This document shows, piece by piece, positions 25,023 through 60,830 of a stretch of DNA of 64,000 bases. This DNA comes from an uncultured Solirubrobacterales bacterium. GTDB lineage: Bacteria; Actinomycetota; Thermoleophilia; Solirubrobacterales; JBBDJG01. The stretch lies in assembly GCA_963716195.1 (NCBI GenBank), contig OY970293.1, positions 622,909-686,908 of the forward strand, written 5' to 3'. A model generated the notes under the pieces. It did no database searches, had not been told where the DNA came from, and was given only the letters and a program-made list of their open reading frames with translations. Position numbers and translations under genes: made by a program. Within the stretch, counting starts at the first letter, position 1; every line of letters begins with the position of its first letter.

Positions 25023-25296
25023 GGGCATCGAAGGAGGGTGTGACGGAAGGTTTGCGAAAGGGCGCCACTTGCATGCGGGAGTGTTACGAGACGACCGATT
25101 CGTGAGGGGCCACTTAGCGGCTGTGCGGTTGGATGACCTATAGGTCATCCAAACGTTCACTCGCTGATTTGCGGTGTGACGGAGAGGTCGCAACCCTCGC
25201 AAAGCGCATAAACCTGCACGACGGCGTCGGTGTTTCGTTACCTCTCGGCCGGGTCGCTACACCGCACCCGCAATGACCCTCCCTCCTTCGGTGCCC
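25023..25296 (+). repeat. Inverted-end/CTATAG-hairpin element, long type, copy A
   Basis: Ends GGGCATCGAAGGAGGG / CCCTCCTTCGGTGCCC (15/16 inverted match); perfect 24-bp palindrome TTGGATGACCTATAGGTCATCCAA at 25129-25152; colinear with the reverse complement of copy B. Confidence 0.85.
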
Positions 25297-25346
25297 GGAC
25301 CGAAACGGCTTCCCGGCGCCACAAGGGAATCGCTACGGTTCAGCCC

Positions 25347-26387
25347 GTGCGCCCGACGATCAAGGCGGACAACCTGCTCGAGCGCATGGCGCTGCGGCTC
25401 AACCTCGCGCCGGCGCCGGTCGTGGAGGCGCTTTTCTATCCCGCGATCGCGCGCACCGTGATGGGCGGCGTGCGGCTGGGAGTGTTCGAGCGCCTGTGCA
25501 AAGGAGCGGCGACGGCCGACCAGCTCGCCTCCGAGCTCGAGTTGACCCCGGTCGGGGCGCGCTTTTTGCTCGACTCTTTGGCGGCCGCGGGCCACGTGCG
25601 CCGCGAGCGCGACACCTACTCGATCACCGACAGAGCGCGGCGCTGGCTCGATCCCGCTTCGGACCGGTACATCGGCACCTACATCCGACACACCTACGAC
25701 TACTGGGAGTGGTGGGAAAGCATGGAGCAGGTGATCCGGACCGGGAAGAGCTTCGAGATCCACGATTTCCCGCCCGATGACCCGAGCTGGGACGTCTATA
25801 TACGGGGACAGTTCGAGTTGGCGCGTCTGTCAGCGCCGGAGGTGGCGCGCGCCCTGCGTCTGCCGCCGAAGGCACAGTCGCTGCTGGACGTGGCGGGCGG
25901 CCACGGGTGGTTCTCGGCTGAACTCTGCCGGCGCCACGATGGCCTGCGCGCGACGGTCGTCGACCTGCCGGGCAGCGCGCGAGTGGGCCGGGAGATCATC
26001 GCCGAGGCGAGCATGAGCGATCGCGTGCGCCACGTCGAAGCAGACCTGACGACGGCGGAGCTCGGCGGGCCCTACGACGGCGCGCTCTGCTTCAACATCA
26101 TTCATCACCTCACGCCCGAGCAGAACTTCGCGCTCTTCCGGCGCATCCACGATGCGCTCGCGCCGGGCGGGACGTTCGCCGTGCTCGACCTGTTCACACA
26201 GCCGCAGGACAAACGCCCCGACGCGGCTGCCTTTCTCGGAATGTTCTTCTACCTCACCTCGGCGGCCGCGACCTACGGTCCCGAGGAGCTGTTCGGATGG
26301 CTCGACGAAACCGGGTTCGAGCGCCCGCGCAAGGTCAAGATCAGGCGGATACCGACTCAGACGTTGTACGAAGTACGGCGGAAGTAG
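25347..26387 (+). CDS. Class I SAM-dependent O-methyltransferase with a dimerisation domain
   Basis: LLDVAGGHG, VVDLP, FNIIHH, ALAPGG. Confidence 0.88.
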   Translation: MRPTIKADNLLERMALRLNLAPAPVVEALFYPAIARTVMGGVRLGVFERLCKGAATADQLASELELTPVGARFLLDSLAAAGHVRRERDTYSITDRARRWLDPASDRYIGTYIRHTYDYWEWWESMEQVIRTGKSFEIHDFPPDDPSWDVYIRGQFELARLSAPEVARALRLPPKAQSLLDVAGGHGWFSAELCRRHDGLRATVVDLPGSARVGREIIAEASMSDRVRHVEADLTTAELGGPYDGALCFNIIHHLTPEQNFALFRRIHDALAPGGTFAVLDLFTQPQDKRPDAAAFLGMFFYLTSAAATYGPEELFGWLDETGFERPRKVKIRRIPTQTLYEVRRK

Positions 26388-26388
26388 A

Positions 26389-27792
26389 TTGGCGCGGCTC
26401 GGGCACGTCGGTCGCTGGATTACAGACGGAGAACGCCGCGTCATTGTTTTGCACGGGTTCAACATCGTCAACAAGCTGCCGCCCTACGATCCGGCGGCGA
26501 TCGGATTCGACCGGCGTCACGCCGCGTTTCTGCGCGAGCACGGCTTCAACACGATCCGGCTCGGTCTGATCTGGAAGGCGATCGAGCCCGAGCCCGGCGT
26601 CTACGACGACGGCTATCTCGACCGCATCGCAGCGACCGTCGATGCGCTCGGCGCGGCTGGCGTGCACGTCCTGCTCGACTTCCACCAGGACATGCTGAAC
26701 GAGCGCTACAACGGCCAGGGCTTTCCCGACTGGGCGGCGCTCGACGACGGCATCAGGCCGTGGCCTGACGTCGGCTTCCCGGGCAACTACGCTGTGATGC
26801 GCGCGCTGTGGCGCGCCTACGACCACTTCTGGCGCAACGATCCCGGGCCGGGAGGCATCGGCCTGCAAGACCGCTACGCGCAGGCGTGGCGTCACGTTGC
26901 CGAGCGCTTCAGCGCGCACGAGGCCGTGTTCGGCTACGACATCTTCAACGAGCCGTTCCCGGGGTCGGCCGTGGTGCGCTCCGTGCGGCCCGGCGGCAAC
27001 GCCGACTTCGACCAGCTCCTGAGCGCGTTCACGCGCCGGGTCATGCGCGCGATCAGAGCAGTGGACCGCCGGCGGCTCGTCTTCTACGAGCCGAGTGCGC
27101 TGTTCGACTACGGCGTGGACACGCGCCACGAGGCCACGGGCGATGAAAACGCCGGCTTCAGCTTTCACGCGTATTGCATCGCCGCATCGCCCGGCATGCC
27201 CGGGTTGCGCGGTCCGCTCCAGGACGCCGCCTGTGGCAAGCAGGAACGGCGGGTCTTCGCCCTCGCCGACCGCCACGCCGGGCGCAACGACGAGGCGCTG
27301 TTGCTGTCCGAGTTCGGGGCGAGCGACGACGTGCGGCTCGTCAAGCGGGTGGCCGACATCGCCGACGAGCGCATGATCTCGTGGCAGTACTGGGCTTACT
27401 GGAATCGCGACCCCTGCTGCGAGCGCCCGCACGAAGGGTTGGTGCACGATCTCGGGCGGCCACCGGACGGGGACAACCTGAAGCAGGAAAAGCTCGACGC
27501 GCTCGCGCGCCCGTTTCCGCGCGCGGTCGCGGGCACGCCCCTGCGTTTCCGGTTCGATCCCGACGCGCACGCGTTCGAGCTGCTGTACTCGACCGCTCGC
27601 CCCGGCGGAGGCAGGTTCGATGCCGGGACGGAGACCGAGGTCTTTTTGCCGCCGCGCCGCTTCGGTCGCGGCTACGAAGTCGAGATCGGAGGTGCCGAGG
27701 TCGCCTCCGAACCCGATGCGCCGCTGCTGCGCCTGCGATCGGTGGCGGGAGCGGGCCGCGTCGCCCTTCGCGTCGTAGCGCAAGTCGGCTAG
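26389..27792 (+). CDS. GH5 endoglycoceramidase-like glycoside hydrolase
   Basis: LHGFN, GFNTIRLG, LDFHQD, YDIFNEP, FHAY, LSEFGA, RPFPRAVAGTP. Confidence 0.9.
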   Translation: MARLGHVGRWITDGERRVIVLHGFNIVNKLPPYDPAAIGFDRRHAAFLREHGFNTIRLGLIWKAIEPEPGVYDDGYLDRIAATVDALGAAGVHVLLDFHQDMLNERYNGQGFPDWAALDDGIRPWPDVGFPGNYAVMRALWRAYDHFWRNDPGPGGIGLQDRYAQAWRHVAERFSAHEAVFGYDIFNEPFPGSAVVRSVRPGGNADFDQLLSAFTRRVMRAIRAVDRRRLVFYEPSALFDYGVDTRHEATGDENAGFSFHAYCIAASPGMPGLRGPLQDAACGKQERRVFALADRHAGRNDEALLLSEFGASDDVRLVKRVADIADERMISWQYWAYWNRDPCCERPHEGLVHDLGRPPDGDNLKQEKLDALARPFPRAVAGTPLRFRFDPDAHAFELLYSTARPGGGRFDAGTETEVFLPPRRFGRGYEVEIGGAEVASEPDAPLLRLRSVAGAGRVALRVVAQVG

Positions 27793-27820
27793 ACTTCGCG
27801 CGGGCAATAGGGGAGGGACG

Positions 27821-30073
27821 ATGTTCCGTCGGATCGGTTGTTTGCTGGCCGTCGCAGTTGCAACGCTCGCTGCTGCTCCGCAGGCATTTGCGTTGCCGCA
27901 GCATCGCGCTGACGGCAACCTCAGCGAGTGGGTCGGCGACCCGACCTGGCTCTCGGGCGAGACGCGCATCTCGCGCGGCGAGCTGATCCACGACGACTGG
28001 CTGTACGACGACTACGGCGCCGACCTCGACCAGGCGTCGAATCCGCCTGTCTTCCGCAGCAACCTTGCCCCCACACGGGGCGACTACCGCTATCCCACGA
28101 ACACGGGGCGCTACGGCTACAACGCGGCCGACCTGCGGCAGTTCAGAGTGGCGGCCACGACCCGCGGGCTGCACTTCCTCGTGTACCTCCAGACGATGAA
28201 GCAGCGCGACGCCGCTGCGGTCACGGTCGCGATCGACGACCGGCGCACTCGCGCGAAGACGAGCGTGTGGCCGGACGGAGCCGGACTCAACACTCCTCTC
28301 TCCGACTACTACATAACCTTCTGGGGCACCGGCGGCGTGATCACCGAGTCCACCGGTTACCGGGAGCGGCTCCGGGCGCAGGCTGTCAACCTCGCCGAGA
28401 ACGCGATCGAGGTCGACGTGCCCTGGACAGCGATCCGCAACATGCGAGGCAAGGCGCGCATGTCGATCGTGACCGGACTAGCCAACCCCACGGCCGGCGG
28501 GTACATGAGCGTCCCGGCCGGGACGCCGACGGGCACGTCGCCCGGCGGCGGAGCACCTGGATCGACGGCCGTCTTCGACCTCGGGTTCGACTCCACCGAA
28601 GTCGCGACCCGCGCGATCGGAAGTCACTGGGGCGAGGAGCGGCAGTCCGCCGCACTGTCCACGCTCGACATCTCCGAATACGGCTACGACGTCGACATCG
28701 ACGAGCTGCGCAAGCACGGGTCCGACAACTACACGCCTCAGGCCGGCCGGTTCTACAACCGCATCTTCCGCTCGACACAGGACTTCGGGGAGGGGATCGA
28801 GACCAAGCAGGGCAGCCCCGGCGGCAGCCCCGAGCCGATGTTCCTCTCGCGCCACCAGCCCTACGGGCTCTACATACCGACCGGCTACACGCCCGGCACC
28901 CCGGCGCAGCTCCTGCTCAACGGGCACTCGCTCGACGTCAACCAGAACGAGTACGCCGTTGTGTCGCCCAACCTGTACAGCCAGCTCGGCGATCAGCGTC
29001 GCAGCATCGTGGTGACGCCGCTCGCCCGCGGCACCGACACGTGGTACATCACCTCGGGCTTCAAGGACGTGCTCGAAGCCTGGGACGACGTCAAGGCTCA
29101 CTACAACGTGGACGACGACCGCACGCACATCGGCGGCTACTCGATGGGTGGCTACATGACCCACAGGATGGGCCTCCTGATGCCGGACCAGTTCGCGAGC
29201 GCGATTCCCTACGTTGGTCCGCCGGCCTATCAGCTCTGGCCATACCCGAGCCCGCCGCAGCCGTCGAGCGACTACCAGGTCGCGGGCCAGACGAACAACA
29301 TCGTCTTCAACGGCCTCAACCTCCCGTACGAGATCAACAACGGCGCGGCAGACGAGCTCGTGCCGGTCGCGGGAGCACAGCAGCACGCGGCCACCTTCCA
29401 GCAGTTCGGCAACCCGCACCTGTTCTACCTGTATCCGTCGGCCGACCACTTCGCGCTGATCGTGGCCGACGAGTGGGGTCACACGCGGGACTGGATGAAC
29501 CAGAACTTCCGGCGCAACGAGACCCCGACCGAGGTGCGCTACAAGCGCTATCCGTCGATGGACCTGCCTCAGTACGGGCTGCGCTTCGACGGCGCGTACT
29601 GGGTGGACGACATGGTGGTGCGCACGCCCTCGAACACGTGCACGCCCGGAGACTCTTCCTGTGAGCAGTCGTTCGGCCAGGTCGAGGCCTACAGCCAGGG
29701 CTGGGGTCGCAGCCGCTCCGTCGCGACGAACGTGAGCTTCGCGTATCCCGGTCCGCCCTTCCCGGCGGACGTCCAGGGCTCGACCCGGTCGGACACCTCG
29801 GTCGTGCGGCGCGACTTCTTCGACGCCAGCCTGGTGAACCTGAGCGGGATCTCCTTCGACATGGCCAGGATGGGCATCAACACCGACGCGGTGATCGAGG
29901 GCCACCTGACGGTCGGTGGTGCCGGGCCCGTCACGGTCAAGTTGAAGGGCAGCTTCGGACCGGTGAGCGCGACGCTCGACGGCCAGCCCGTGGCGGTCAC
30001 CCCCACCGTGGACGGGATTCAGATGACCCTCACGCTCACCTCGCAGCATGACCTGGTCCTAACGCCCCAGTAG
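27821..30073 (+). CDS. Secreted alpha/beta hydrolase (S9/esterase-like) with an N-terminal DOMON-like domain
   Basis: Signal peptide; DGNLSEW, NAADL; QPYGLYIP; GYSMGG nucleophile; DELVP and ADHF as the remaining triad positions. Confidence 0.75.
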   Translation: MFRRIGCLLAVAVATLAAAPQAFALPQHRADGNLSEWVGDPTWLSGETRISRGELIHDDWLYDDYGADLDQASNPPVFRSNLAPTRGDYRYPTNTGRYGYNAADLRQFRVAATTRGLHFLVYLQTMKQRDAAAVTVAIDDRRTRAKTSVWPDGAGLNTPLSDYYITFWGTGGVITESTGYRERLRAQAVNLAENAIEVDVPWTAIRNMRGKARMSIVTGLANPTAGGYMSVPAGTPTGTSPGGGAPGSTAVFDLGFDSTEVATRAIGSHWGEERQSAALSTLDISEYGYDVDIDELRKHGSDNYTPQAGRFYNRIFRSTQDFGEGIETKQGSPGGSPEPMFLSRHQPYGLYIPTGYTPGTPAQLLLNGHSLDVNQNEYAVVSPNLYSQLGDQRRSIVVTPLARGTDTWYITSGFKDVLEAWDDVKAHYNVDDDRTHIGGYSMGGYMTHRMGLLMPDQFASAIPYVGPPAYQLWPYPSPPQPSSDYQVAGQTNNIVFNGLNLPYEINNGAADELVPVAGAQQHAATFQQFGNPHLFYLYPSADHFALIVADEWGHTRDWMNQNFRRNETPTEVRYKRYPSMDLPQYGLRFDGAYWVDDMVVRTPSNTCTPGDSSCEQSFGQVEAYSQGWGRSRSVATNVSFAYPGPPFPADVQGSTRSDTSVVRRDFFDASLVNLSGISFDMARMGINTDAVIEGHLTVGGAGPVTVKLKGSFGPVSATLDGQPVAVTPTVDGIQMTLTLTSQHDLVLTPQ

Positions 30074-30126
30074 GGGGCTGCCCGCTCAACCTTTCCCGGC
30101 CCACCGCCGATTGAGCGAGTGGGCCG

Positions 30127-31671
30127 ATGGACCGGGCGCAGACGGGAGAGCACTCGCTGGCTGTTGGGCGGCCATGGTCTCGGGTCGAGCGCCGTGCGCG
30201 CACGAGCCGGGAGCGGCTGGCCTGGTGGATGGCTGCGGAGCTCGCAGTCGACGTCGTCATGCTCGCGCTCGCCTGGGTCGGGTTCGACCGCATCTTCTCC
30301 GTCTCGCCGCAGCCGCCTGACCCGGCTGTCTGGCATTTGATCTTCTCGGTGCTCCTGATCGCCATGGTCGCCGCCCGGGGCTTCTACAGGCCGCGGCTAA
30401 GGCTGCAGACGCTCGACGACCTGGCCGTGCTCGCGGTCGCCGGCGCAGCCGCGGCGATGACCGTCATCACGGTGCGGGTCCTGCTCGACGAGAACCCCTA
30501 CACGACCTGGACCGTCCACTACTGGCTGTTTGCGGCCGGGCTGCTCTCGGTGGGCCGGGGCGGGCTTCACGTCGCGCAGGCAAATGCCCGCCGGCGGGGG
30601 GAGGCGGTGCGCCGCACCCTGATCGCCGGCGCGGGCAGGATGGGCCATCTCGTCGCGCGCAGGCTGCTGGACCGCCCGAACCTCGGGCTGCGACCGGTCG
30701 GCTTCATCGACAAGGAGCCACTCGACGTGGGCAGTGACTCGGTCGGCCTGCCCGTCCTTGGAGCCAGCTGGGACCTCGACCGCATCATCGCCGAGCACGA
30801 GGTGGAGCACGTGATCGTTACCTTCTCGACTGCTCCTCATCACGTCCTGCTGGCACTGGCCCGGCGCTGTCGCGAGCTCGGCGCGTCGGTGTCGATGGTG
30901 CCGCGACTGTACGAATTGGGGGGCCGGCGCGTTGTCGTCGAGCATCTCGGCGGAGTGCCGCTCGTGTCCGTCGACCCCGCGGATCCGAGGGGTTGGCAGT
31001 TCGCCGTCAAGTACACGGTGGACCGAGTGATCGCCGGCGTCTTGCTCACCGTAATGCTCCCGATACTGCTCGCTGTGACGGTCCTGATCCGCTTCAGGAT
31101 GGGATCGCCGGTCCTCTACCGCCAGCAGCGGGTCGGCCGCGACGGCAGGCGCTTCGAGATGCTCAAGTTCCGCACCATGAAGGGCGACCCGGCGAGCGAG
31201 GGCGAGGCCGACGCGGACTGGGCGCGCGAGCAGATCGGCGCAGACCCGCACGACCAGTGGCCCTCGGCGAGGCCTGGGGCGAGCGCTCATCGCGGCGACG
31301 GATCGGCAGACGACAGACGGACGCGACTCGGCCGCATCCTGCGTTTCTTCTCGCTCGACGAGCTGCCGCAGCTACTGAACGTGCTGCGCGGCGAGATGTC
31401 TCTCGTCGGCCCCCGACCCGAGCGCGCGAACTACGTGCAGCGTTTCGAGTCCGAGATCTACCGCTACGGCGACCGCCACCGCGTCAAGTCGGGCATCACC
31501 GGGTGGGCACAGGTAAACGGCCTGCGCGGCAAGACTTCTCTGGCGGACCGAGTCGAGTGGGACAACTTCTACGTCGAGAACTGGTCGCCATGGCTGGACG
31601 TGAAGATCGTGCTCCTGACGATCTGGTGCGTGGTGCGCGGCCAGCATGAGAAGGATCCGTACGAGCTCTGA
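30127..31671 (+). CDS. Polyprenyl-phosphate sugar phosphotransferase (WcaJ-like priming glycosyltransferase)
   Basis: TM N-terminus, LIAGAG, KFRTM, SLDELPQLLNVLRGEMSLVGPRPE, GITGWAQV. Confidence 0.93.
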   Translation: MDRAQTGEHSLAVGRPWSRVERRARTSRERLAWWMAAELAVDVVMLALAWVGFDRIFSVSPQPPDPAVWHLIFSVLLIAMVAARGFYRPRLRLQTLDDLAVLAVAGAAAAMTVITVRVLLDENPYTTWTVHYWLFAAGLLSVGRGGLHVAQANARRRGEAVRRTLIAGAGRMGHLVARRLLDRPNLGLRPVGFIDKEPLDVGSDSVGLPVLGASWDLDRIIAEHEVEHVIVTFSTAPHHVLLALARRCRELGASVSMVPRLYELGGRRVVVEHLGGVPLVSVDPADPRGWQFAVKYTVDRVIAGVLLTVMLPILLAVTVLIRFRMGSPVLYRQQRVGRDGRRFEMLKFRTMKGDPASEGEADADWAREQIGADPHDQWPSARPGASAHRGDGSADDRRTRLGRILRFFSLDELPQLLNVLRGEMSLVGPRPERANYVQRFESEIYRYGDRHRVKSGITGWAQVNGLRGKTSLADRVEWDNFYVENWSPWLDVKIVLLTIWCVVRGQHEKDPYEL

Positions 31672-31783
31672 GCCGAGCCGTCCGCGGCCCTGCTAGTCCC
31701 TCAGGATCGCGCGCCACATGTCCGCGATCCTCTCCTGTTGAAGCTCGTGGCGGCGGTTGGCTCGCTCATCCGCGGTAGCGTCC

Positions 31784-31945
31784 TCATCGCTTCCCCACCG
31801 CATGGGCGCCGGCCAGCGTCATGCAAATGAACTGATTGAGGCTCACGCCCTCCTGTTCCGGCCAGTACCAACCGCGCGTGCAGGCTGGTCGGTACGCGCA
31901 GCCGAAACTGGCCGCTGTACGGACGCTCCGGTTCCTCGCGCTCAG
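31784..31945 (-). pseudogene. Frameshifted HicB-family antitoxin remnant (RHH domain)
   Basis: ERPYSGQFRLRVPTSLHARLVLA, then in another frame EQEGVSLNQFICMTLA. Confidence 0.7.
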
Positions 31946-32310
31946 GTTCGGCCTGTCCGAGTCGGTTCTCGAAGCGGGGGGTGTCCTTGGGAAAGACTGG
32001 TTCCGACATCGGAACCGCAGGTGATACCGACGTCCATGCGACTGCTCCGTGCATGAGTGAACGGACGGCTTGACCAGGAGAACCAAAAAAACGCGGGGAC
32101 CATCGAGATTCCGAGGGACACCTTCGAGGGTGTGCTGGTACCACCGCTGGGACCGGCGGCGGTACCGGTTGCCCGGGAAGGCAAGGGGTAGGCCGAGGGT
32201 AGGTCCGTCCTCGCCGCGTCGCTCACGCAAATTCAAGTAAATCCGCGCCTCGCTCGATAAATGATCTGAGCGCTCACGGCCTCTAGCCGTGCCCGATCCG
32301 CGAGCGAGAC

Positions 32311-33402
32311 TTGACTCAGAGCAACGGCTCCAGAAAGCAGACGCAAGTGCTGGTCATCGACGACGACCAGGACATGACGCGCATGCTGGGCCGCGTGTTG
32401 GAGCGGGCCGGCTACGAGTGGACTCTGGCGACGACGACCGATCAGGCGTCCGAGCTGCTGCAGACCGGACAGTTTCCGCTTGCGCTTTCCGGGCTGGAGA
32501 CTCCGGGCGAGCGTAGCCTCGAGCAGGTTCGCCACGTGCTCTCGAACCATCCGGACGTCGCCCTCGTTGTCGTCAGTGCGATCGACGATCCCGAGTTCGC
32601 CCGGACGGCGCTCGAGTGCGGTGCCTACGGCTACATCATCGAGCCCTTCACGCCCAGCGAGCTCGAGATCGCCGTCGCCAATGCATTGCGCCGGCACCAC
32701 CTGGAGATCGAGAACCGGGCGCAGCGCCAGGCGCTGGAGCAGATCGTGAAGGTGCGCACCGCCGCGCTCGAGCGCTCGGCTCACCAGCTCAAGCTGACTC
32801 GCGAGGAAACCGTGCGCCGGCTCTCTCGCGCGGTCGAGTATCGGGACGAGGAGACCGGCAACCACACCGAGCGCATGAGCCGCTACTGCGCGCTGATGGC
32901 GCGCCGCACCGGGCTCGACCCGGAGTCCGTGCGGATCGCCAGCGCGCTGCACGACGTCGGCAAGGTCGCCGTTCCCGACCACGTGCTCCTGAAGCCGGGG
33001 ATCCTCAACGACGATGAGCGGCGCGAGATGGAGCGCCATACGGAGGTCGGCTACCGGATCCTCCACGGATCGGGCAGCTCGCTGCTCGAGCTCGGAGCCC
33101 TGATCGCGTGGACTCATCACGAGAAGTTCGACGGCTCGGGCTATCCGCGTGGCCTTGTCGCTCACGAGATCCCGCTCGAGGGCCGGATCGCTGCGGTCGC
33201 CGACGTCTATGACGCGCTCACGACCCATCGCCAGTACAGGCCCGCCTTCCCGGCCGAGAAGACGCTGGCGATCATGACCGCCGAGCGCGGAAAGCACTTC
33301 GATCCGGACCTGGTGGACTACTTCCTCGGCTCCATGGACGAGGTCACCGAGATCCAGCACTCGTACGCGGACGACTCTCGCGAGCCTGCGCTCACCGTCT
33401 AG
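32311..33402 (+). CDS. Response regulator with an HD-GYP phosphodiesterase domain
   Basis: VLVIDDD receiver; ETGNHTER, LHDVGK, HHEKFDGSGYPRG, ADVYDAL. Confidence 0.93.
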   Translation: MTQSNGSRKQTQVLVIDDDQDMTRMLGRVLERAGYEWTLATTTDQASELLQTGQFPLALSGLETPGERSLEQVRHVLSNHPDVALVVVSAIDDPEFARTALECGAYGYIIEPFTPSELEIAVANALRRHHLEIENRAQRQALEQIVKVRTAALERSAHQLKLTREETVRRLSRAVEYRDEETGNHTERMSRYCALMARRTGLDPESVRIASALHDVGKVAVPDHVLLKPGILNDDERREMERHTEVGYRILHGSGSSLLELGALIAWTHHEKFDGSGYPRGLVAHEIPLEGRIAAVADVYDALTTHRQYRPAFPAEKTLAIMTAERGKHFDPDLVDYFLGSMDEVTEIQHSYADDSREPALTV

Positions 33403-33547
33403 CCGGCGGGTGAGATTTCGGTCCGCGTCGGGGGCCTCGGCTAAAGCGGCGCCGGGGAGCTGACGATGGTTGCTCGCGGTGCCCTCCCCGAGCTCCACAG
33501 CGAACCATCGCGCTCCTGGCGAGCTGGCGGGGCGGGTGCGAGAGCTG

Positions 33548-34744: not shown

Positions 34745-34747
34745 CGC

Positions 34748-35092: not shown

Positions 35093-35102
35093 CCGAGACC
35101 TC

Positions 35103-35162
35103 CTAGAACAGGATGATCAACAGGATGACGATTACCAGAAGTGTTCCGAGTCCGATGTACAT
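35103..35162 (-). CDS. 19-aa single-TM microprotein
   Basis: MYIGLGTLLVIVILLIILF* with an AAGGAGGTGA RBS. Confidence 0.7.
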   Translation of the reverse strand: MYIGLGTLLVIVILLIILF

Positions 35163-37252: not shown

Positions 37253-37262
37253 CGCGCTTGAA

Positions 37263-40857: not shown

Positions 40858-41135
40858 GGACGGGCATCGAAAGGGGAGTGATCCCATGGCGCTCGGCTGA
40901 CGACCTAAGTGGGACGAGACATCGGCGTACCTGTGCGGACTTCTACGCTTCACGACCGTTTACGACATCCCCGTAACACCGCCAATCATCGAGTGGTCAG
41001 CTTGGGGGTCTATAGCCCCCTCAACTGACCACTCGACAGGTGGCCTCTCACAAATCGGTCACTTTGTCCCACACACGCACGCAAGACACGAGCTTCCGCA
41101 AACCTTTCGTATCACCCCCCTTTCGATGCCCGTCC
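40858..41135 (-). repeat. Inverted-end/CTATAG-hairpin element, long type, copy B
   Basis: 25-bp inverted ends GGACGGGCATCGAAAGGGGAGTGAT / ATCACCCCCCTTTCGATGCCCGTCC (24/25); central hairpin TCGAGTGGTCAG...CTATAG...CTGACCACTCGA at 40989-41036. Confidence 0.88.
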
Positions 41136-41160
41136 CTGCGGCCGTAAACGAGTACTGGTC

Positions 41161-48302: not shown

Positions 48303-48336
48303 CAATGACGTTCTGCCAGCCGGGTAGATTGCGACC

Positions 48337-50255: not shown

Positions 50256-50262
50256 AGCCCGG

Positions 50263-50950
50263 GCATCAAAGGGGTAGGAGGGAAATCCCGCACCTTTACT
50301 CGGCCTGTCACGGGATCCGCGTCAACCATCCCGAGGCTGACACGGAAGACTCCCTCCTTCGATGCAGCAGTTGGTCCCTAGGGGCGGTCGCGCGCATCTG
50401 ACGAGGCACCGAAGGGGGGTGACGCTCGGAGGTCTGCCTTTTGGGAGCCCCTCGGATGGAACGATGCACTTTCGGGATGGGGTCCCCGTTGCTGTCGCTC
50501 TAATGCCGCCTATGGGGGCCAAAGCTTGCATGCTGCCGAGAGCGCATCACGGATCCCGCGTCAACCATCCCGAGGCTGACACTGAAGGCTCCCTCCTTCG
50601 ATGCAGCAGATAGTCCCTCCGTCCGGCTTCGCGCTATCGACGAGGCACCGAAGGGGATGGTGGAGGTCAGCCCTTCGCGAGCCCTTCGCGTTGAACGATG
50701 CACTCTCGCGATTAGGCCCCGATTGCTGATGTAGTTATGCCGCCTATAGGGGCCGAAGCTTGCATGCCCCCGAGAGCGCATCACCAATCCCGCGTCACCA
50801 TCCCGAGGCTGACACTGAAGGCTCCCTCCTTCGATGCAGCAGTTGGATCCCGCGGTCCGGGTTCACGGCTTTCGTGGTCACCGCAGGGTCGTGTCCCGAG
50901 GTCCGCCTCCTGCGAGCCCTTCGGATTGAACGTGACACTCTGGCGATCGT
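50263..50950 (+). repeat. Tandem array of short-type inverted-end/CTATAG elements (~233-239 bp period)
   Basis: Units 50263-50365 (internally deleted), 50406-50604, 50645-50837 and a partial unit at ~50877-50950; shared CGCGTCA(A)CCATCCCGAGGCTGACAC.GAAG.CTCCCTCCTTCGATGCAGCAG in the first three. Confidence 0.9.
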
Positions 50951-51070
50951 GGCAGCGCGTCGATCGTCCCGAGACCCACGCAAAGCCGCAAACCCCCCGC
51001 AAAAAGGCCAGATCCGCCTCTGTAACGGCCAGGTAACGATGTTCCACGCCATTTCACGCCTCTTAGGCAA

Positions 51071-53800: not shown

Positions 53801-53857
53801 GGAGCGTTGCTTCGGGACCCGGCAGCGTTGACCAACCAGCCAGTATCCTCGGCCCTC

Positions 53858-55249
53858 GTGGCCGCGGCGCCTCCACCTGTCAGCTCGAACCCGCTGCGAC
53901 TGCTGTGGCAGGACTGGCGCGCGGACCGGCGGGCGCAGGTCGCGTTCCCGCCAGGGGACATGAACTTCAGCCTCGCGCGCATGCGCCGGTTCGATCGCGA
54001 CCCGCTCTCGCTACTCGTCGAGTGCTACGAGCGCTTCGGACCGATCTTCACGCTCAGGATCTTTCACCACAACGCGGTCTTCATGCTTGGACCGGCGGCC
54101 AATCACTACGTGCTGGTCTCGCACGCGAAGAACTTCGTCTGGCGCACCGGCCACTTCCGCGACCTGACTCACCTGATGGGGGATGGACTGCTCACGATCG
54201 ACGGCGCCTTTCACCGCACTCATCGCAAGCTGATGCTGCCCGCCTTTCACAGCGAGCAGATCCGCGCCGCCTCAACCGTGATGCAGGAGGAGGTGGACCG
54301 GGCGATCACCGACCTGCGGCCGGGCGAGATCGTCGACGTCTACGGCTGGACGCGGAGCGTCGCCCTGCGAGTCGCGATGCGAGCGCTGTTCGGATTCGAT
54401 CCCGACGCCGCCCGCGCCGGCGGCATGAATGCAGCCGAGGAGTTCGAGTCCGCGCTCTCCTTCTATGCGCACGACTTCCTGCTCCAGATGCTGCGCGGCC
54501 CGCTGACGCCGTTTTCGCGGCTCGTGCGTTCGCGCCGCCGTCTCGACGAGCTCGTCTACGCGGAGATCGACCGCCGCCGCCGGACGGGGGAACGCGGGAT
54601 GGACGTGCTGTCGCTGCTGCTCGACGCCAGCGACGAGGAAGGCGAGTCGCTCGAGCGCCGTCACGTGCGCGACGAGGTCATGACGCTGCTCTTCGCGGGC
54701 CATGACACGACCACGTCGACGGTCGCGTTCATGTTCTACGAGCTGTCGCGCAACCCGGAGGTGCTCGACGACCCGAGCATCTCCGTCGAGATGATCCTCG
54801 ACGAGACCCTTCGCAAGTACCCGCCGGCCTACATCGGCCCGCGCCGCGTCGTCGAGGACTTCGAGTTCAACGGGTACACGGTCCCCGGTGGGGCGCACCT
54901 GTCGTACTGCTCCTGGGCGAGCCACCACCTGCCGGACGTGTTCCCGGAGCCGGAGGCGTTCAGGCCGCACCGTTTCAGCGAGGAGGCCAAGGCGGCGCTG
55001 CCGCTCGGCGCGTACGTGCCATTCGGCGGCGGTTCGCGCACCTGCATCGGAATGCGGTTCGGCCAGGCGGAGATCGCGATCATCGCCCGCGCGATCCTCG
55101 AGCGCTACAGGCTCGAGCTCGTCCCGGGTTACGAGCTCAGCATCAGGCACGCGCCGACGATCTCACCGCGCGAGGGAATGCCGATGCGAGTGGTGCCGGC
55201 GGAGCGCCCGGCGGCCGTGCTCGCAGGCGCCGCGCAAGCGGCGGCGTAG
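53858..55249 (+). CDS. Cytochrome P450
   Basis: FAGHDTT, ETLR, FRPHRF, PFGGGSRTCIG; start may instead be 53807. Confidence 0.93.
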   Translation: MAAAPPPVSSNPLRLLWQDWRADRRAQVAFPPGDMNFSLARMRRFDRDPLSLLVECYERFGPIFTLRIFHHNAVFMLGPAANHYVLVSHAKNFVWRTGHFRDLTHLMGDGLLTIDGAFHRTHRKLMLPAFHSEQIRAASTVMQEEVDRAITDLRPGEIVDVYGWTRSVALRVAMRALFGFDPDAARAGGMNAAEEFESALSFYAHDFLLQMLRGPLTPFSRLVRSRRRLDELVYAEIDRRRRTGERGMDVLSLLLDASDEEGESLERRHVRDEVMTLLFAGHDTTTSTVAFMFYELSRNPEVLDDPSISVEMILDETLRKYPPAYIGPRRVVEDFEFNGYTVPGGAHLSYCSWASHHLPDVFPEPEAFRPHRFSEEAKAALPLGAYVPFGGGSRTCIGMRFGQAEIAIIARAILERYRLELVPGYELSIRHAPTISPREGMPMRVVPAERPAAVLAGAAQAAA

Positions 55250-55257
55250 AGGCGGGC

Positions 55258-56343
55258 TCAGGTCCGGTGGCCGGCCTGCGCCGCGGCCGGCGGCTGCTCC
55301 AGCTCGTGCCACGGTGAGTCGTCCGCCGTTGCGCCGGCCCCGCGACGCTTCGCGCGGTACAGCGCTTGGTCCGCCACGCGTGTGAGGTCGTCAAGCGTGT
55401 GCCCGTCCCGATCGTATATCGCGACGCCGAAGCTGATGCCGACGCGGGTCGCGCCCACATACGTGTGGTCGCGTACCGCGTGCCGAATCCGCTCCCCGAT
55501 CTCCCGCGCTCCTTCCTCGTTCGTGTCGGGCAGGATGATCGCGAACTCGTCGCCGCCGACGCGGGCCGCAACGTCCACGGCGCGCAGCTCCGAGGGCAGT
55601 CGCCTGCCGAGCTCGGTGAGCGCCGCGTCTCCCGCGACATGGCCCAGGCGGTCGTTTATCTGCTTGAGGTGGTCGAGGTCGGCGAGCAGGAACGCGAACG
55701 GGCGCTCGGTGCGGATTGCCCTCCCGACCTCCTGGGCGAAGTGCTCCTCGAAGGCAAGCCGGTTCGGCAGCCCCGTGAGGCGGTCGGTGCGGGCCGCTCG
55801 CTCGAGGTCGGCGACGAGCCGGGCGATCCGCGCGCTCAGCATGCTCACGACGATCGCCGAGCCGATCACCAGTCCGATCGTGCTGAGCCAGCGGCTGACG
55901 CCGATGGCGCCCGGGTCGATTGCGATCAGCGTGATGGCGTACGCGAGTGCGATCAGGCCGGCCTGCAACGTCGTGGCCAGCGGTCCGAGGAAGTACGCCG
56001 CGTACAGGACCACCCACAGGTAGTACATCTCGTCGCCACCTGCCGGGCCGCCGTGGCGCTCGCCGTTGAACAGCAGGGCGAGCGAGATGAGCACCGTCCC
56101 GGCCGCGACCACGGCGTGGAAGACCCAGCCCGGGAGCCGCTCCGCACGCGCCCTCAGCAGCGCGGCCATCAGCCCGGCAGCGCCGGCTACGGCGGCGAGC
56201 CCGGCCTCGTCCACCTCGGGCTGGTGCGGAAGGACGAGCCCGGCCATCGTGACAAGCGAGGCGCCGCCGAACAAGAGCGCGCCGAAGCGCGCCATTTGGC
56301 GGCGATGGGCAACCGTGCCTGCCTGTCCCGACGCTTCCCGCAT
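55258..56343 (-). CDS. Membrane diguanylate cyclase
   Basis: TM N-terminus; TDRLTGLPNR, DLDHLKQINDRLGHVAGD, RVGGDEF. Confidence 0.92.
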   Translation of the reverse strand: MREASGQAGTVAHRRQMARFGALLFGGASLVTMAGLVLPHQPEVDEAGLAAVAGAAGLMAALLRARAERLPGWVFHAVVAAGTVLISLALLFNGERHGGPAGGDEMYYLWVVLYAAYFLGPLATTLQAGLIALAYAITLIAIDPGAIGVSRWLSTIGLVIGSAIVVSMLSARIARLVADLERAARTDRLTGLPNRLAFEEHFAQEVGRAIRTERPFAFLLADLDHLKQINDRLGHVAGDAALTELGRRLPSELRAVDVAARVGGDEFAIILPDTNEEGAREIGERIRHAVRDHTYVGATRVGISFGVAIYDRDGHTLDDLTRVADQALYRAKRRGAGATADDSPWHELEQPPAAAQAGHRT

Positions 56344-56386
56344 CTTCCGGGACAGGTATCGGCCTGCCGTGGTCCGGTCTGAAGAA

Positions 56387-56536
56387 TCACCTCCGGAAGA
56401 AGACGGCCGCGCCTACTCCGGCCAGGAGCACGCCGGCCCAGAAGATGCCCTGGGCGCCGGAGGCGCCGCTGACGGCCCAAGCCATCAGCACGCCGATCAC
56501 GATCAGCGGCAATCCGACCTCCCACCGCCAGCGCAC
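56387..56536 (-). CDS. Small two-TM membrane protein
   Basis: MRWRWEVGLPLIVIGVLMAWAV...IFWAGVLLAGVGAAVFFRR. Confidence 0.55.
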   Translation of the reverse strand: MRWRWEVGLPLIVIGVLMAWAVSGASGAQGIFWAGVLLAGVGAAVFFRR

Positions 56537-56618
56537 GGTGGTGCGGCCGGCCGGTTCCCGGAAGCCACGCTTGCGGGTATCGCGCAGGCGACGCACGGCT
56601 CTCCTATCGTACGGACGC

Positions 56619-57926
56619 ATGCCGGCCCGCGGCATCCTGTTATGCGCGACGATCGCGTTCGGCGCGTTCGCGTCCGCATCGGCGGTGTCCGGCGACAGCT
56701 CGTCGATCGCCGGCCGGTCGGTGCGGGACCGGCAGATCGTCGCCGTGCGATCGGGCGACGCGAATGCACGCACGCGCGTACTGGTCGTCGGCTCCATCCA
56801 TGGCAACGAGACCGCCGGTCACGCGGTCGTGCGGCGCTTGCGCGCGCTGCGGCCGCCCGGTGGGGTGGCATTGTGGACGGTGCGCAGCGTGAATCCCGAC
56901 GGCGTCGCAGCAGGGACCCGTCAGAACGCTCGGGGCGTGGACCTGAACCGCAACTTCCCGTATCGCTGGGGAAGGCAAGGCGAGCCGTTCAGCACGTTCT
57001 ACTCGGGACCGCGACCACTTTCCGAGCCGGAGTCGCGCGCGGTGCGCACACTGGTGAGGAAGGTACGTCCAACTTTGACGATCTGGTACCACCAGGCACT
57101 GCGACTGGTCGATCTCGGCAGCGGCGCCGACCGTGCGCTGGTGCGCGCGTATGCGCACCGGGTCGGACTGCCCGCCCGCATGATCGGCTTCCTGCCGGGG
57201 GTCGCCACGCGCTGGCAGAACAGAAGCTTCCCGGGCACCAGCGCCTTCGTTGTGGAGCTCCCCGCCGGTCCACTGTCTGCGCGCCAGGCAAAGCGCCACG
57301 CCCGGGCGGTACTCGCGGTCTCGCGCCGCGCCGCGCGCGCGAGCGCCGTCGAGCCACCGCCGGTGCGCCAGCACCGGATCCCGTTCGGCGCGCAGCGAAA
57401 GCGAGACATGCGGCGGTATGCGCGTCGCCACTACGGGATCGACGACTACCGGCTGAAGAAGCCGCGCGTGATCGTGCTGCACCTGTCCGTCACCGACACC
57501 GCGCAGCAGGTGTTCAACACGTTCGCGCCCAACAGGCCCGACCCGGAGCTCGGGGAGCTGCCGGGCGTTTGCTCCCACTACGTCATCGATCCGCGTGGCC
57601 ACATCTCCCAGCTCGTGTCGCTGCGCATCATGTGTCGCCACACGGTCGGGCTCAATTACACGTCGATCGGAATCGAGCACGTCGGCCGCCGCGAGTCTCA
57701 GGTTTTCGGCCACCGGCGCCAGCTACGCGCTTCTCTACGGCTCGTGCGCTGGCTCCAGTCCCGCTACGGCGTCCGCACGCGCAACGTGATCGGGCACAAG
57801 GAGAGCCTGCGCAGTCCCTACCACCGCGAGCGCGTGCGCCGCCTGCGCACCCAGACTCACGGCGACTTCCCGGCGGTGGACGCTAGCCGTTACCGGCGGC
57901 TGCTGGGACGCCTACCCAATCCCTAG
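56619..57926 (+). CDS. Secreted fusion of an M14 (MpaA-like) carboxypeptidase and an Amidase_2 N-acetylmuramoyl-L-alanine amidase
   Basis: IHGNE, NPDG, RQNARGVDLNRNFP, SEPES; then VIVLH, SHYVID, CRHTVGLNYTSIGIE, VIGH. Confidence 0.85.
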   Translation: MPARGILLCATIAFGAFASASAVSGDSSSIAGRSVRDRQIVAVRSGDANARTRVLVVGSIHGNETAGHAVVRRLRALRPPGGVALWTVRSVNPDGVAAGTRQNARGVDLNRNFPYRWGRQGEPFSTFYSGPRPLSEPESRAVRTLVRKVRPTLTIWYHQALRLVDLGSGADRALVRAYAHRVGLPARMIGFLPGVATRWQNRSFPGTSAFVVELPAGPLSARQAKRHARAVLAVSRRAARASAVEPPPVRQHRIPFGAQRKRDMRRYARRHYGIDDYRLKKPRVIVLHLSVTDTAQQVFNTFAPNRPDPELGELPGVCSHYVIDPRGHISQLVSLRIMCRHTVGLNYTSIGIEHVGRRESQVFGHRRQLRASLRLVRWLQSRYGVRTRNVIGHKESLRSPYHRERVRRLRTQTHGDFPAVDASRYRRLLGRLPNP

Positions 57927-59751
57927 CCCGCGGGCGCGGGCGCGGGGCGGGAGGCTCGTCCCTGTCCCTGCGCGCGACGCGGCCCACTCCCCAGGCGAGC
58001 GTGCCGAGCAGGAGCGCGAACAGTCCCAGGACGACAAGCGATGCGCCGCCCCAAAGCCAGCTCGGAACGCCGAAGTCGCGCTCACGCTGGAGGATCTCCG
58101 CATCTGCCTGGACCGGGCGTGTGACCGACGCCGGCGCGGGCACCTCGGCGGCCGGGATCGCCGGGTCCGCCGGCAGGAACACCGGCACGCCCAGCACCTG
58201 GCGGCCGTTCTGGAGCCGGATGATCGACTTCCAGTCGCCGTGCACTGGGATCGGCTCGGTCGTGCGGTAGACGCCTTCTCCGATCCGCTTCAACTTGTCA
58301 ACGTGCAGTCCGCCGCCCTGCCACGCTGTCGCCGTGATCCAGGCCGGGCTGTCGGCGAGCGTGGGAGGGTCGAAGCGGACGACCGCATTTGCCTCGCGTC
58401 CCTTCGCGGGAGAGTTTTCATCGGTGAGCACGAGCGTCGCGCGCGCACCGCTGGGGTCGCTCGTCATGACGCCGGCAGCCACCGAGACGCCGATGGCGCA
58501 GATCGAAAGGACGGCGATCGCTCGAGCGAGCCCAAGGCGCGGGAGCTCTCCCCGCAGCCCGAGCGCGAGCAAAGCACCGAGCAGGCCGGCGGCGATGCCA
58601 GTAACGGTCGCGCCGAGCAGTGCCTCGGGCAGGATGTCGGCGTTCCACGGCAGGCGGTAAGCGATCTGTGTCCAGCCCCATTCCGCGCCGAGTCCGACCG
58701 TGCCGATCAGCGCGCCGCTCGTCGCTCCGACGGCGAGCGGACGACCGGCGAACGCAAGTGCCGCTGCCTCGACCAGCAGTGCCTCAGCGAGGTAGAGCGG
58801 GATGGCCGGCGTCGTCTCTCCGATCACTGGCCCAACGAGCAGGCTGACCGCGCCGCGCGTGACGATGAAGAAGAGCGCGGCGCCGATCGCACCGCCGCGC
58901 CCGATCCACAGCCGGGCGGCGACGAGCGCGACACCCGCCGCACCGGCGATCAGCAGCGGCTGCAGGACGAGCCGGTACTGCGGCACGCCGAAGTCGAACT
59001 CCGCCTGGAAGGTCGAGAGGCCGATCAGCAGGCCACCGAGCAGGCCGACACGGCGGATGGACGCCACCATCCGCGGGCCCGAGCGGAGGCGGGGTGTTCC
59101 CTTGCGCGAGCGCATGCCCTCGGCGAGCAGCACGCACTGCCCGATCAGCGACAGCCCCGCGCCGCCGATCAGCATCAGGTGCGTCGGGCCCCAGAGAGTG
59201 ACGTCCTGCCCGAACAGGCGGTGCCACACGTCGTCGAGGGGGAACGCGACCAGCGCAAAGGCGCCGCAGGCCGCCGTCAGCACACCGCCGATGGGCGCGT
59301 ACCAGCCCGGCGCGATGCGGATGCCGCCGCCGGCGGGCCGGTCGCCCTTGGGGAGCACGATTGCCAGGACGCCAGCAGCGAACACTCCGAACAGCCCGGC
59401 GAGGATGAAGTAGTGCGCCGGGTTGGCGAGGGGGCCCGGGTCGCGGCCCTGGTCGATGTGCAGGGCGATGTCCCAGTACATCCCGAGCAGGGCGACGTTC
59501 AGGGCGAGTCCGGCCACGGTGCCGGGGAAGGCGGCCCACCCCGGCAGCCCGGATACGCGCTCGAAGAAGGCAGCGATGCGCGCCAGCAGGTTGATCCGGC
59601 CGGTGCGGTGTCCATGCGCGAGTACGAGCAGCGCGCCCGTCGCGATCGAGGCGCCGCCGGTCGCGATCGCCACCTGAAGCGGTTCGGCGCCGCCGGCGGG
59701 CTTGGCTTCGGCGAGCGGGAGAAGGAGCGAAGCGACGGCTTGAGAAATCAC
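57883..59751 (-). CDS. Multi-TM hypothetical membrane protein
   Basis: WDIALH...NPAHY and DDVWHRLFGQDVTLWGPTH His/Trp motifs; more than 12 hydrophobic segments; GGAGG RBS. Confidence 0.8.
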   Translation of the reverse strand: MISQAVASLLLPLAEAKPAGGAEPLQVAIATGGASIATGALLVLAHGHRTGRINLLARIAAFFERVSGLPGWAAFPGTVAGLALNVALLGMYWDIALHIDQGRDPGPLANPAHYFILAGLFGVFAAGVLAIVLPKGDRPAGGGIRIAPGWYAPIGGVLTAACGAFALVAFPLDDVWHRLFGQDVTLWGPTHLMLIGGAGLSLIGQCVLLAEGMRSRKGTPRLRSGPRMVASIRRVGLLGGLLIGLSTFQAEFDFGVPQYRLVLQPLLIAGAAGVALVAARLWIGRGGAIGAALFFIVTRGAVSLLVGPVIGETTPAIPLYLAEALLVEAAALAFAGRPLAVGATSGALIGTVGLGAEWGWTQIAYRLPWNADILPEALLGATVTGIAAGLLGALLALGLRGELPRLGLARAIAVLSICAIGVSVAAGVMTSDPSGARATLVLTDENSPAKGREANAVVRFDPPTLADSPAWITATAWQGGGLHVDKLKRIGEGVYRTTEPIPVHGDWKSIIRLQNGRQVLGVPVFLPADPAIPAAEVPAPASVTRPVQADAEILQRERDFGVPSWLWGGASLVVLGLFALLLGTLAWGVGRVARRDRDEPPAPRPRPRARDWVGVPAAAGNG

Positions 59752-59795
59752 CCTGTACCTCCAAGTGGAGCGATACCCTGACCTGATCGTCGGAA

Positions 59796-59825
59796 ACCGT
59801 ACCATCATTTGATGTCGCATGTCAA
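59796..59825 (-). promoter_or_regulatory. Sigma70-type promoter with a dyad in the spacer (possible MerR operator)
   Basis: TTGACA-N18-TACGGT on the minus strand; CATCA-TT-TGATG inverted repeat at 59803-59814; divergent merR gene. Confidence 0.55.
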
Positions 59826-59841
59826 GGTGTAGAGTCCATCC

Positions 59842-60606
59842 GTGACAAAGGACGCCGAATCCGGCGCCGAGGCGCTCACGATCGACGAGCTGGCCCGAAG
59901 GGTTGGCATGACGGTTCGGAACGTGCGTGCACACCAGTCGCGCGGGCTCCTGCCGGCGCCCGAGATTCGCGGCCGCACGGGCTTCTACGGGCCCGAGCAC
60001 ATCGCGCGGCTGGAGCTGGTGAAGGACCTCCAGGCGGAGGGCTTCAACCTGGAAGCCATCAAGCGCATCGTCGAGAGCTCGCCCGGCACCTCATCCGCCG
60101 AGATCCTTCACTTCACCCGCGCGCTGGCCGAACCCTTCGGCGACGAGCAGCCGGAGGTCATCGATCTGGACAGCTTCAGGGAGCGATGGGGCAAGCAGGC
60201 AACGCCGGAGGCGCTTGCCCGCGCAGAGAAGCTGGGCTTCGTGAGACCGCTCGGCCGGGACCGCTTCGAGATCCTGAGCCCGCGTCTAGAACGCGCCTCG
60301 CAGGAGTTGGCGGAGCTCGGCGTCCCGCTCGAGACGGCGCTGGACGTCACCGCGACCCTGAAGCGCCACGGCGCTGCCGTCGCCAAGGCATACGTGCAGC
60401 TTTTCCTCGACCACATCTGGCGCCCGTTCGAGGAGGCCGGCGAGCCCGAGGAGCGCTGGTCCGAGGTGCGCGACGCGCTCGAACGCCTGCGGCCGCTGGC
60501 GGGCGAGTCTCTGGTCGCCGTCTTCGGGATCGTGATGACGCGGGCCGTCGAAGAGGCACTGGAACGCGAGCTGGCGCGGATCGGGCGGGGGAGCGCGAAG
60601 GCGTAG
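59842..60606 (+). CDS. MerR-family transcriptional regulator
   Basis: LTIDELARRVGMTVRNVRAHQSRGLLP...YGPEHIARL...GFNLEAI. Confidence 0.92.
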   Translation: MTKDAESGAEALTIDELARRVGMTVRNVRAHQSRGLLPAPEIRGRTGFYGPEHIARLELVKDLQAEGFNLEAIKRIVESSPGTSSAEILHFTRALAEPFGDEQPEVIDLDSFRERWGKQATPEALARAEKLGFVRPLGRDRFEILSPRLERASQELAELGVPLETALDVTATLKRHGAAVAKAYVQLFLDHIWRPFEEAGEPEERWSEVRDALERLRPLAGESLVAVFGIVMTRAVEEALERELARIGRGSAKA

Positions 60607-60635
60607 CTCCTTTGCCGGTCTCGCCCTTTTCACGG

Positions 60636-60830
60636 GCACCGAAGGGGTGATGTTCCGGCGTTTCCTTCAGTGCGCTCATCGCGCTGAAGTTCGCACTCTC
60701 GCGATGGGCGTCCACTTGCGGATGTAGTTATGCCGGCTATAGGGGCACAATCCTGCACGCTGCCGGGGGCCGATCACGGGTTCCGCGTCAAGCATCCCGA
60801 GACAGCGCCGCGGACGCACCCGTTCGGTGC
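60636..60830 (+). repeat. Short-type inverted-end/CTATAG element, copy D
   Basis: Ends GCACCGAAGGGGTG / CACCCGTTCGGTGC (13/14); shares GCACTCTCGCGAT, GATGTAGTTATGCCG.CTATAGGGGC and TCCGCGTCAA.CATCCCGAG with the 50.3-50.9 kb array. Confidence 0.88.

Follow-up and report, generated by a model that had tools for sequence, protein, structure and literature searches.

Dispersed hairpin-bearing repeats of a Solirubrobacterales genome resemble the start regions of AbiEi-DUF559 nuclease genes

INTRODUCTION

What are the structured, noncoding repeats that recur in a 64-kb stretch of the chromosome of an uncultured Solirubrobacterales bacterium (contig OY970293.1; here called the window), and where did they come from? 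An initial annotation, made from the letters of the window, described a dispersed element with inverted ends and a covarying central hairpin capped by CTATAG or CTATGG. It proposed either a mobile single-stranded DNA (ssDNA) element, similar to miniature inverted-repeat transposable elements (MITEs) or repetitive extragenic palindromes (REPs) and mobilized in trans by, for example, an HUH enzyme, or a multicopy structured noncoding RNA (ncRNA). We extended the analysis to the whole genome and to its relatives. The core of the repeats matches the start of genes for proteins that combine an AbiEi-like part with a DUF559 domain, and on balance we consider it probable that the repeats are miniature, decaying derivatives of the 5' control region of these AbiEi-like plus DUF559 (Vsr-like) nuclease genes.

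A genome-wide repeat family in two forms

The genome that contains the window is a single contig (C1) of 3,879,407 bp with 67.6% G+C and a completeness of 96%. Profile searches (nhmmer) seeded with the window copies and iterated over this genome returned a long form of about 275 nucleotides (nt), whose 159 strand hits correspond to 81 loci (51 full length), and a short form of about 205 nt with 51 units (36 full length) in 28 loci. The census bears out the division into two subfamilies and brings the number of copies to more than 130. Both forms start with GGCAYCGAAGGGG and end with its inverse, the terminal pairs being identical in 46 to 50 of 50 copies. Thirteen of the 28 short-form loci are head-to-tail arrays of 2 to 4 units with a period of mostly 232 to 239 nt, and short units, even solo ones, have a common stretch of about 10 nt (CGGCTTCGC) at either border, a feature compatible with tandem growth and also with integration at a repeated core. 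Among the long loci, 30 of 81 are truncated, and some are split by insertion sequences (IS). No open reading frame (ORF) is kept across the copies in the genome, as had been claimed for the window; reading frames vary between copies, and in the short units, the frame from the ATG stays open for a median of 35 codons, with scattered stops.

A covarying central hairpin

When searched with its own profile, the long form gives a second match on the opposite strand, with roughly half the score, so the whole element is an imperfect foldback, and its consensus folds into one long rod. The arms of the central palindrome are 20 to 23 nt long, with the lower stems (CTGAA.A.TT / AA.T.TTCAG) being the best-conserved part. 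The apex hexamer CTATAG is found in 26 of the 50 full long copies, and an ATG lies inside the apex in 4 of the 50.

Covariation was tested on the central 112 nt of the long form, comprising 37 pairs, with 500 shuffles. Double-change cells number 93 in the alignment; the shuffles average 31 and never reach 93, and shifting the pair partners by one to three columns abolishes the signal. In the inner hairpin, double-sided changes are seen at 15 of the 22 pairs, and 87% of the cells are paired. The covariation first read from two copies of the window therefore holds across the long family. The comparison of these two copies was also accurate: copy A aligns colinearly, end to end, with the reverse complement of copy B (72% identity over 177 nt by BLAST), and their apical stems are unlike in sequence, yet each pairs. 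The capped central hairpin holds for the long family but not for the short family, whose CTATAG/CTATGG motif does not cap any hairpin in the RNAalifold prediction and has, by eye, just two or three pairs beside it.

The hairpin core matches the starts of AbiEi-DUF559 genes

A pattern scan of all species genomes gave mostly chance singletons among the matches listed. We tested 44 of the listed loci with a covariance model (R1) of the central 112 positions of the long form, built from the repeats of the window's genome only, and a single locus matched. This locus (L171), from a 6.7-Mb genome (G041), is a 274-nt element with the same ends, the CTATAG loop and a wholly different stem, and its genome has 163 matches to the end motif versus 16 for a control pattern. 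One left end in G041 lies 49 nt before a gene whose ATG sits in the loop of a hairpin. The gene product has an AbiEi_4 domain and a C-terminus of the restriction endonuclease type, for which Pfam gives DUF559 in the homologues of the window's genome and of a further genome (G007). In the same genome, a 5.3-kb stretch between two exact end motifs was considered as an element and rejected, as it contains housekeeping genes instead.

The window's genome has seven matches to DUF559, four of which bear on the repeats. For the gene at C1:3563734-3564606, the long-family hidden Markov model (HMM) matches the 5' end with an E value of 1e-12 (model positions 102 to 192). Upstream lies the left-end motif GGCACCGAAAGGG, 88 nt before the gene, followed by about 40 nt and then by a 50-nt hairpin with the apex TTATAG, and the start ATG comes from the 3' foot of the hairpin, CGATG. 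A frameshifted paralogue also matches the long-family HMM (E value of 1.4e-4). At the gene 3361675-3362526, the short-family HMM matches the start with an E value of 2.7e-9, where the GTTATGCCGCCTATAGGGG of the repeat corresponds to ATG CCG CCT AGA GGG in the gene. Another paralogue has its own TTATAG-capped hairpin in the 5' region. By these matches, the repeat core is homologous to the starts of AbiEi-DUF559 genes.

We compared the genome with 40 relatives of the same order, two of which (G001 and G002) belong to the same genus. The AbiEi-DUF559 protein family is found in 33 of these 41 genomes, the window's genome included, with 2 to 19 matches in each of the 32 relatives that have it. Thirty gene loci were fetched from the window's genome and its relatives and surveyed for start hairpins, and 16 of them (one, L236, from the unpublished genome G004) have a hairpin whose loop contains or adjoins an in-frame start codon (ATG, GTG or TTG); the count is 14 of 30 if the hairpin score of our script must be at least 8. 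Among the 15 loci with at least 55% identity, 12 have the start codon in or near the loop. R1 matches directly upstream of the start at 10 of the 30 loci at an E value of ≤1 and at 5 of the 30 at ≤0.01. The gene hairpins have a common lower stem, CGCTGAAG...CTTCAGCG, whereas the upper stem varies by locus.

The start hairpin is common in genes of genomes without any repeat expansion, and the repeats are confined to the window's genome, with a separate set in G041; the direction read from this distribution is thus from gene to repeat. On this view, the CTATAG or CTATGG cap corresponds to the start-codon context, C-C/T-ATG-G, whose ATG has mostly decayed. The initial annotation took the hairpin as a sign of selection acting on structure. 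The covariation is real, but its more specific source would be the hairpin inherited from the AbiEi-DUF559 gene starts: the stem of the start hairpin (or inverted-repeat operator) differs between paralogues. A gene-start origin explains how a noncoding repeat can show convincing base-pair covariation without an RNA function.

The AbiEi-DUF559 protein

Pfam assigns the AbiEi_4 and DUF559 domains to the protein of the window's genome. In a structure predicted from 28 sequences, with a mean pLDDT of 90, the first 190 residues or so match the AbiEi antitoxin (PDB ID 6y8q; E value of 1.4e-5) and Rv2827c (PDB ID 1zel). The last 98 residues or so superpose with the catalytic domain of the homing endonuclease I-Bth0305I (PDB ID 3r3p), a Vsr-like (EDxHD) enzyme, with a target-normalized TM-score of 0.83 and a root mean square deviation of 2.8 Å. 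D220, D233 and H238 are invariant in the 28 sequences, and E231 is nearly so. A sequence search of the PDB returned no relative. The likeness to homing endonucleases is structural only: unlike I-Bth0305I, the AbiEi-DUF559 gene lies outside any intron or intein, is multicopy and chromosomal, and carries its own AbiEi-type DNA-binding module.

Both AbiEi and Rv2827c bind to inverted repeats of 23 bp in their respective promoters (PMC7319586), and the arm length of the element and gene palindromes agrees with these repeats. The likeness to the AbiEi and Rv2827c operators therefore comprises the same fold in the N-terminal two-thirds of the protein and inverted repeats of similar arm length that overlap the start of their own gene. 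In contrast to AbiEi, the protein described here is fused to a nuclease and not paired with a DUF1814 toxin, and unlike the AbiEi operator, its repeat is contiguous, with a loop of just 4 to 8 nt, and is copied more than 100 times in the genome.

Some gene loci show signs of movement. The AbiEi-DUF559 gene region of the window's genome is missing at the syntenic site of both same-genus genomes, where the gaps measure 105 and 114 bp versus 1,595 bp. Three of 14 close loci follow a same-strand tRNA gene at a distance of 55 to 147 nt; these are AbiEi-DUF559 genes with a start hairpin that lie downstream of tRNA-Ser (L225 in G009), tRNA-Lys (L227 in G029) and tRNA-Ala (L231 in G002). In 4 of the 14 close loci, the hairpin recurs after the stop codon, and in the window's genome only the upstream hairpin is present.

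A possible origin and mobilizer of the repeats

Under the derivation from a gene start that we favor, the founder would have been the start of an AbiEi-DUF559 gene with a terminal-type motif (GGCAYCGARGGGGG), followed by a 40- to 50-nt palindrome with the start codon in its loop. The repeats would have retained the motif and the palindrome, with the ATG mostly turned into ATA, which gives CTATAG, and would close with the inverse motif.

We put forward only tentatively that the AbiEi-DUF559 nuclease itself recognized the palindrome and end motifs and acted in trans to cut or copy the elements, much as a RAYT would serve REP sequences; among possible mobilizers, it is the best candidate. With the same reserve, the AbiEi-DUF559 genes together with their start palindrome might represent the autonomous form of a class of mobile elements, a "REPtron" with a Vsr-like nuclease in place of the HUH enzyme. 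If so, the protein recognizes the palindrome and the GGCAYCGARGG motifs and copies its own cassette and its miniature derivatives around actinobacterial genomes, the 130-odd repeats of this genome are the fossil record of one burst, and a second enzyme fold joins the REP-RAYT idea. No role has been assigned to DUF559 and AbiEi-DUF559 proteins, common as they are, and a repeat family tied to a gene-start hairpin offers a testable function, that of a nuclease with sequence specificity whose own recognition sites are dispersed in the genome. Our literature searches found no description of a pairing between AbiEi-DUF559 genes and repeats or of such an element class.

REPtrons and REPIN-RAYT systems (PMC3333891, PMC8266576, PMC3733652, PMC3479197) are comparable in that a dispersed palindromic repeat is paired with a nuclease gene bearing the same palindrome at its borders, which for the AbiEi-DUF559 genes means the start in most close loci and the far side of the stop in some, and in that the stems show compensatory changes. 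The candidate enzyme here differs in being AbiEi-like plus Vsr-like (DUF559) and not an HUH Y1 protein. The elements, at 205 to 275 nt with inverted end motifs, also differ from REPs of 20 to 40 nt, as does the position of the parent gene's start codon in the palindrome loop.

Several observations weigh against this interpretation. The homology between repeat and gene comprises just the hairpin (about 50 to 90 nt) and an end motif of 11 to 13 nt, and the outer arms of the long form have no gene match. In relatives, the end motif is uncommon upstream of the genes (6 of the 30 loci with one mismatch allowed), while reversed controls give 6 matches anywhere in 37 loci, and in the window's genome an AbiEi-DUF559 gene is preceded by the left end only. 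The inverse of the end motif recurs without mismatch in G041, where this 11-mer, CCCTCGATGCC, lies within 4 of the 7 AbiEi-DUF559 genes (L255 to L258). There, it always reads S-L-D-A, at three different protein positions, and is too frequent for chance; two genes of the window's genome carry weaker versions. Both same-genus genomes have AbiEi-DUF559 genes with hairpins and no repeat expansion. The extra 1.6 kb or so at the gene region of the window's genome holds a second, small ORF on the opposite strand, a putative CBS-domain gene, and is thus not a clean insertion of a single cassette. We know of no DUF559 protein that mobilizes DNA, and our literature searches turned up no treatment of these proteins as mobile. 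Young copies are also missing among the repeats of the genome, as described below, and movement is therefore not observed.

Age and distribution of the repeats

The median pairwise identity is 65% in the long family and 70% in the short family, with maxima among full copies of 80% and 90%, respectively. The most similar long pair (C1:703300-703576 and 709093-709281) shares 91% identity over 182 nt; its members are inverted, 5.5 kb apart, and one of them is truncated. The copies are thus old and diverged, and movement of the elements is not observed.

BLAST finds the long form in none of the 40 relatives, so presence and absence differ between related genomes. The R1 model gives 87 matches in the window's genome, with hits on both strands counted, versus 0 to 12 weak matches (29 to 40 bits) in each relative, and the two same-genus genomes have 0 and 3. 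A genome of another genus (G009) has 12 full-model R1 matches, representing a diverged sister family.

Clean empty sites were looked for by synteny. Copy A lies in an intergenic gap of about 430 nt, versus about 55 to 60 nt at this site in G001 and G002, but the upstream gene differs and this is not a clean empty site. The flanks of copy B lie on separate contigs of G001, and the window copies other than A lie at synteny breaks. The tandem array (window 50256-51070) is placed exactly at such a break: on its upstream side, three genes are colinear with those of G001 and of a further relative (G011), and the gene downstream of the array is absent beside those three genes in both. Two more 20-kb stretches checked for empty sites are heavily rearranged.

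Gene positions were taken from our own crude caller, which gave 3,126 genes covering 81% of the genome. By these calls, 80 of the 81 long loci are intergenic, and gaps between convergent genes hold 32 of the 80, that is, 40% compared to 19.5% of all gaps (P = 2.5e-5). Taken together, the repeats probably multiplied long ago in the lineage of this genome, settled chiefly in intergenic regions, with a preference for convergent gene pairs, and have drifted ever since.

Alternative explanations

The repeats could instead be an ordinary MITE whose conventional DDE transposase has since been lost, with the likeness to gene starts due to chance capture by the founder or to landing beside genes. Correia/NEMIS, ERIC/IRU, RUP and Nezha are bacterial MITEs and foldback repeats, and the elements described here resemble them in being short, noncoding, multicopy and intergenic, with inverted ends, a long imperfect foldback, and presence and absence between relatives. 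Their size, the convergent-gene enrichment and their old age fit this explanation as well, as do the outer arms, which have no counterpart in the AbiEi-DUF559 genes. However, we consider it unlikely. A target-site duplication, which the initial annotation had not seen clearly either, was not found when all boundary offsets and lengths of 2 to 10 were scanned in 50 copies, nothing rising above permuted flanks, although a short duplication could have decayed in old copies. A transposase-bearing parent with the same ends, which the initial annotation had suggested seeking, was not found in the genome: of the pairs of end motifs within 8 kb of each other, all of which were searched, none encloses a transposase, the pairs being split or neighboring elements. 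Head-to-tail arrays and a core homologous to a gene start also set the repeats apart from MITEs. Further, a start codon held in a hairpin loop is general among these genes in genomes that lack the repeats, and chance capture leaves the same pairing of element and gene in G041 unexplained.

The transposases resident in the genome were considered as partners and rejected. The seven rve matches of the genome fall into two IS types, of 3 and 4 copies, and there is one DDE_Tnp_1 gene and no DDE transposase of the IS630 type. The ends of the IS30-type, the second rve-type, the IS1595-type and the DDE_Tnp_1 elements are unrelated to the element ends.

Two of these IS families are found inside the repeats. 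An IS30-family element of 1,235 bp, with a 386-residue ORF carrying HTH_38 and rve, has three identical copies (C1:823621-824859, 1532505-1533743 and 1772327-1773561). Each copy interrupts an element-type hairpin at its apex, immediately 5' of the loop of CTATAG type, and shows a duplication of 3 bp. The element palindrome appears to be the preferred target of this IS. An IS1595-family insertion of 2.64 kb (C1, about 2112186-2114827; DDE_Tnp_IS1595, zinc ribbon and extra ORFs) lies in the apex of a long-element hairpin, with the 10-bp duplication GAGGGGTCTA. The element palindromes are thus landing pads for at least two IS families. REPs are hot spots for IS insertion, and in being hit by IS the elements described here are similar to them.

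The second rve-type IS, of about 1,052 bp, is unrelated to the repeats. It lies at CTAG sites in four near-identical copies (C1:723300-724351, 3218600-3219651, 3089460-3090511 and 3851951-3853002).

A different possibility is that the host keeps the repeats as binding sites, either operators or decoys for AbiEi-DUF559 proteins or some other protein-DNA architecture, whose number matters for regulation or chromosome structure. The 23-bp inverted repeats bound by AbiEi-type proteins (PMC7319586) are in line with this, as are the 20- to 23-nt arms and the conservation of the lower stems, and half-sites that covary with protein specificity would mimic base-pair covariation. We nevertheless hold this explanation to be improbable: the family is missing in both same-genus genomes, the median pairwise identity is just 65 to 70%, and long loci are truncated or IS interrupted, which together suggest neglect and not maintenance.

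Less probable again are structured ncRNAs or cis-acting mRNA elements, with the long hairpins acting as stabilizers, terminators or small-RNA genes. Several features would fit an RNA. The modeled strand folds about 8 kcal/mol better than its complement (mean of −127.0 versus −118.8 kcal/mol; better in 39 of 50 copies), G:U is the commonest pair at 18 of the 108 pairs of the consensus fold, copies are frequent after gene ends, and in the parent genes the start codon lies within the hairpin, which is therefore transcribed there. However, the strand asymmetry is inherited from one founder and counts as a single observation. No Rfam family matches the repeats at gathering thresholds, and with permissive settings, copy A and the array have no match with an E value below 2, so the check for known RNA families that the initial annotation had called for came back empty. 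Relative to codirectional flanking genes, the long loci show no orientation bias, 18 having the same and 17 the opposite orientation. An RNA made from one strand should tolerate G:U but not A:C, and the departures at the 90 consensus Watson-Crick pairs are 276 G:U versus 330 A:C, which counts against an RNA gene. At a Y/R position of the terminal arms, C·A is found in 12 and U·G in 6 of the 50 copies, so the terminal arms do not covary. Together with the reading frames that are not kept, these results indicate that the repeats evolved as DNA and not as RNA genes, and the multicopy ncRNA of the initial annotation is not supported.

The weakest alternative is a REPIN- or REP-like ssDNA element moved by an HUH enzyme (RAYT or IS200 type), which has in its favor the palindromic core with compensatory changes and the hairpins that attract IS insertions, and which we judge very improbable in that the single-contig, 96%-complete genome has no protein match to Y1/RAYT (PF01797), for which six control genomes do match, and none to TnpB (PF07282), element orientation has no replichore bias, and the elements are about 10 times longer than REPs. 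The same absence of both protein families and of replichore-linked orientation separates the repeats from IS200/IS605-derived elements (PATE). The MITE- or REP-like idea of the initial annotation was thus right in kind, that is, in describing a dispersed, structured, noncoding element with two subfamilies and a covarying hairpin, and it fails in the proposed HUH mobilizer.

Copies in the 64-kb window

All four places named in the initial annotation hold repeats, namely, two long copies, a tandem array of four units and one solo short copy. Their positions are given in Table 1.

Table 1. Repeat copies and their hairpins or motifs in the window
Feature	Window position	Strand	Evidence	Context
Long-family copy A, ~280 nt	25018-25297	+	nhmmer 213.7 bits, E 2.7e-63, model positions 4-277	Divergent intergenic region
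Copy A central hairpin	25116-25165	+	Apex CTATAG 25138-25143; alignment columns 33-86; covariance model R1 105.2 bits	
Long-family copy B, ~281 nt	40858-41138	-	nhmmer 228.6 bits, E 7.9e-68; colinear with copy A	Between convergent genes
Copy B central hairpin	40988-41037	-	Apex CTATAG 41010-41015; R1 103 bits	
Array unit 1, internal deletion	50263-50369	+	Left end GGGCATCAAAGGGG joined to right ~95 nt of short unit; nhmmer model positions 112-207 at 50275-50369	
Array, full short unit 1	50401-50608	+	nhmmer 190.1 bits; ATG 50503-50505, CTATGG 50510-50515	
Array, full short unit 2	50640-50841	+	nhmmer 188.4 bits; ATG 50737-50739, CTATAG 50744-50749	
Array, last unit, left ~78 nt only	50876-50951	+	nhmmer model positions 4-81, E 1.3e-09	
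Solo short copy D	60634-60834	+	nhmmer 144.3 bits; ATG 60730-60732, CTATAG 60737-60742	Between convergent genes

Apart from the repeats, the window contains a cobalamin riboswitch (Rfam ID RF00174) at positions 1072-1214 on the forward strand, with a score of 67.6 bits; a long ORF (1148-3091) has this riboswitch at its start.

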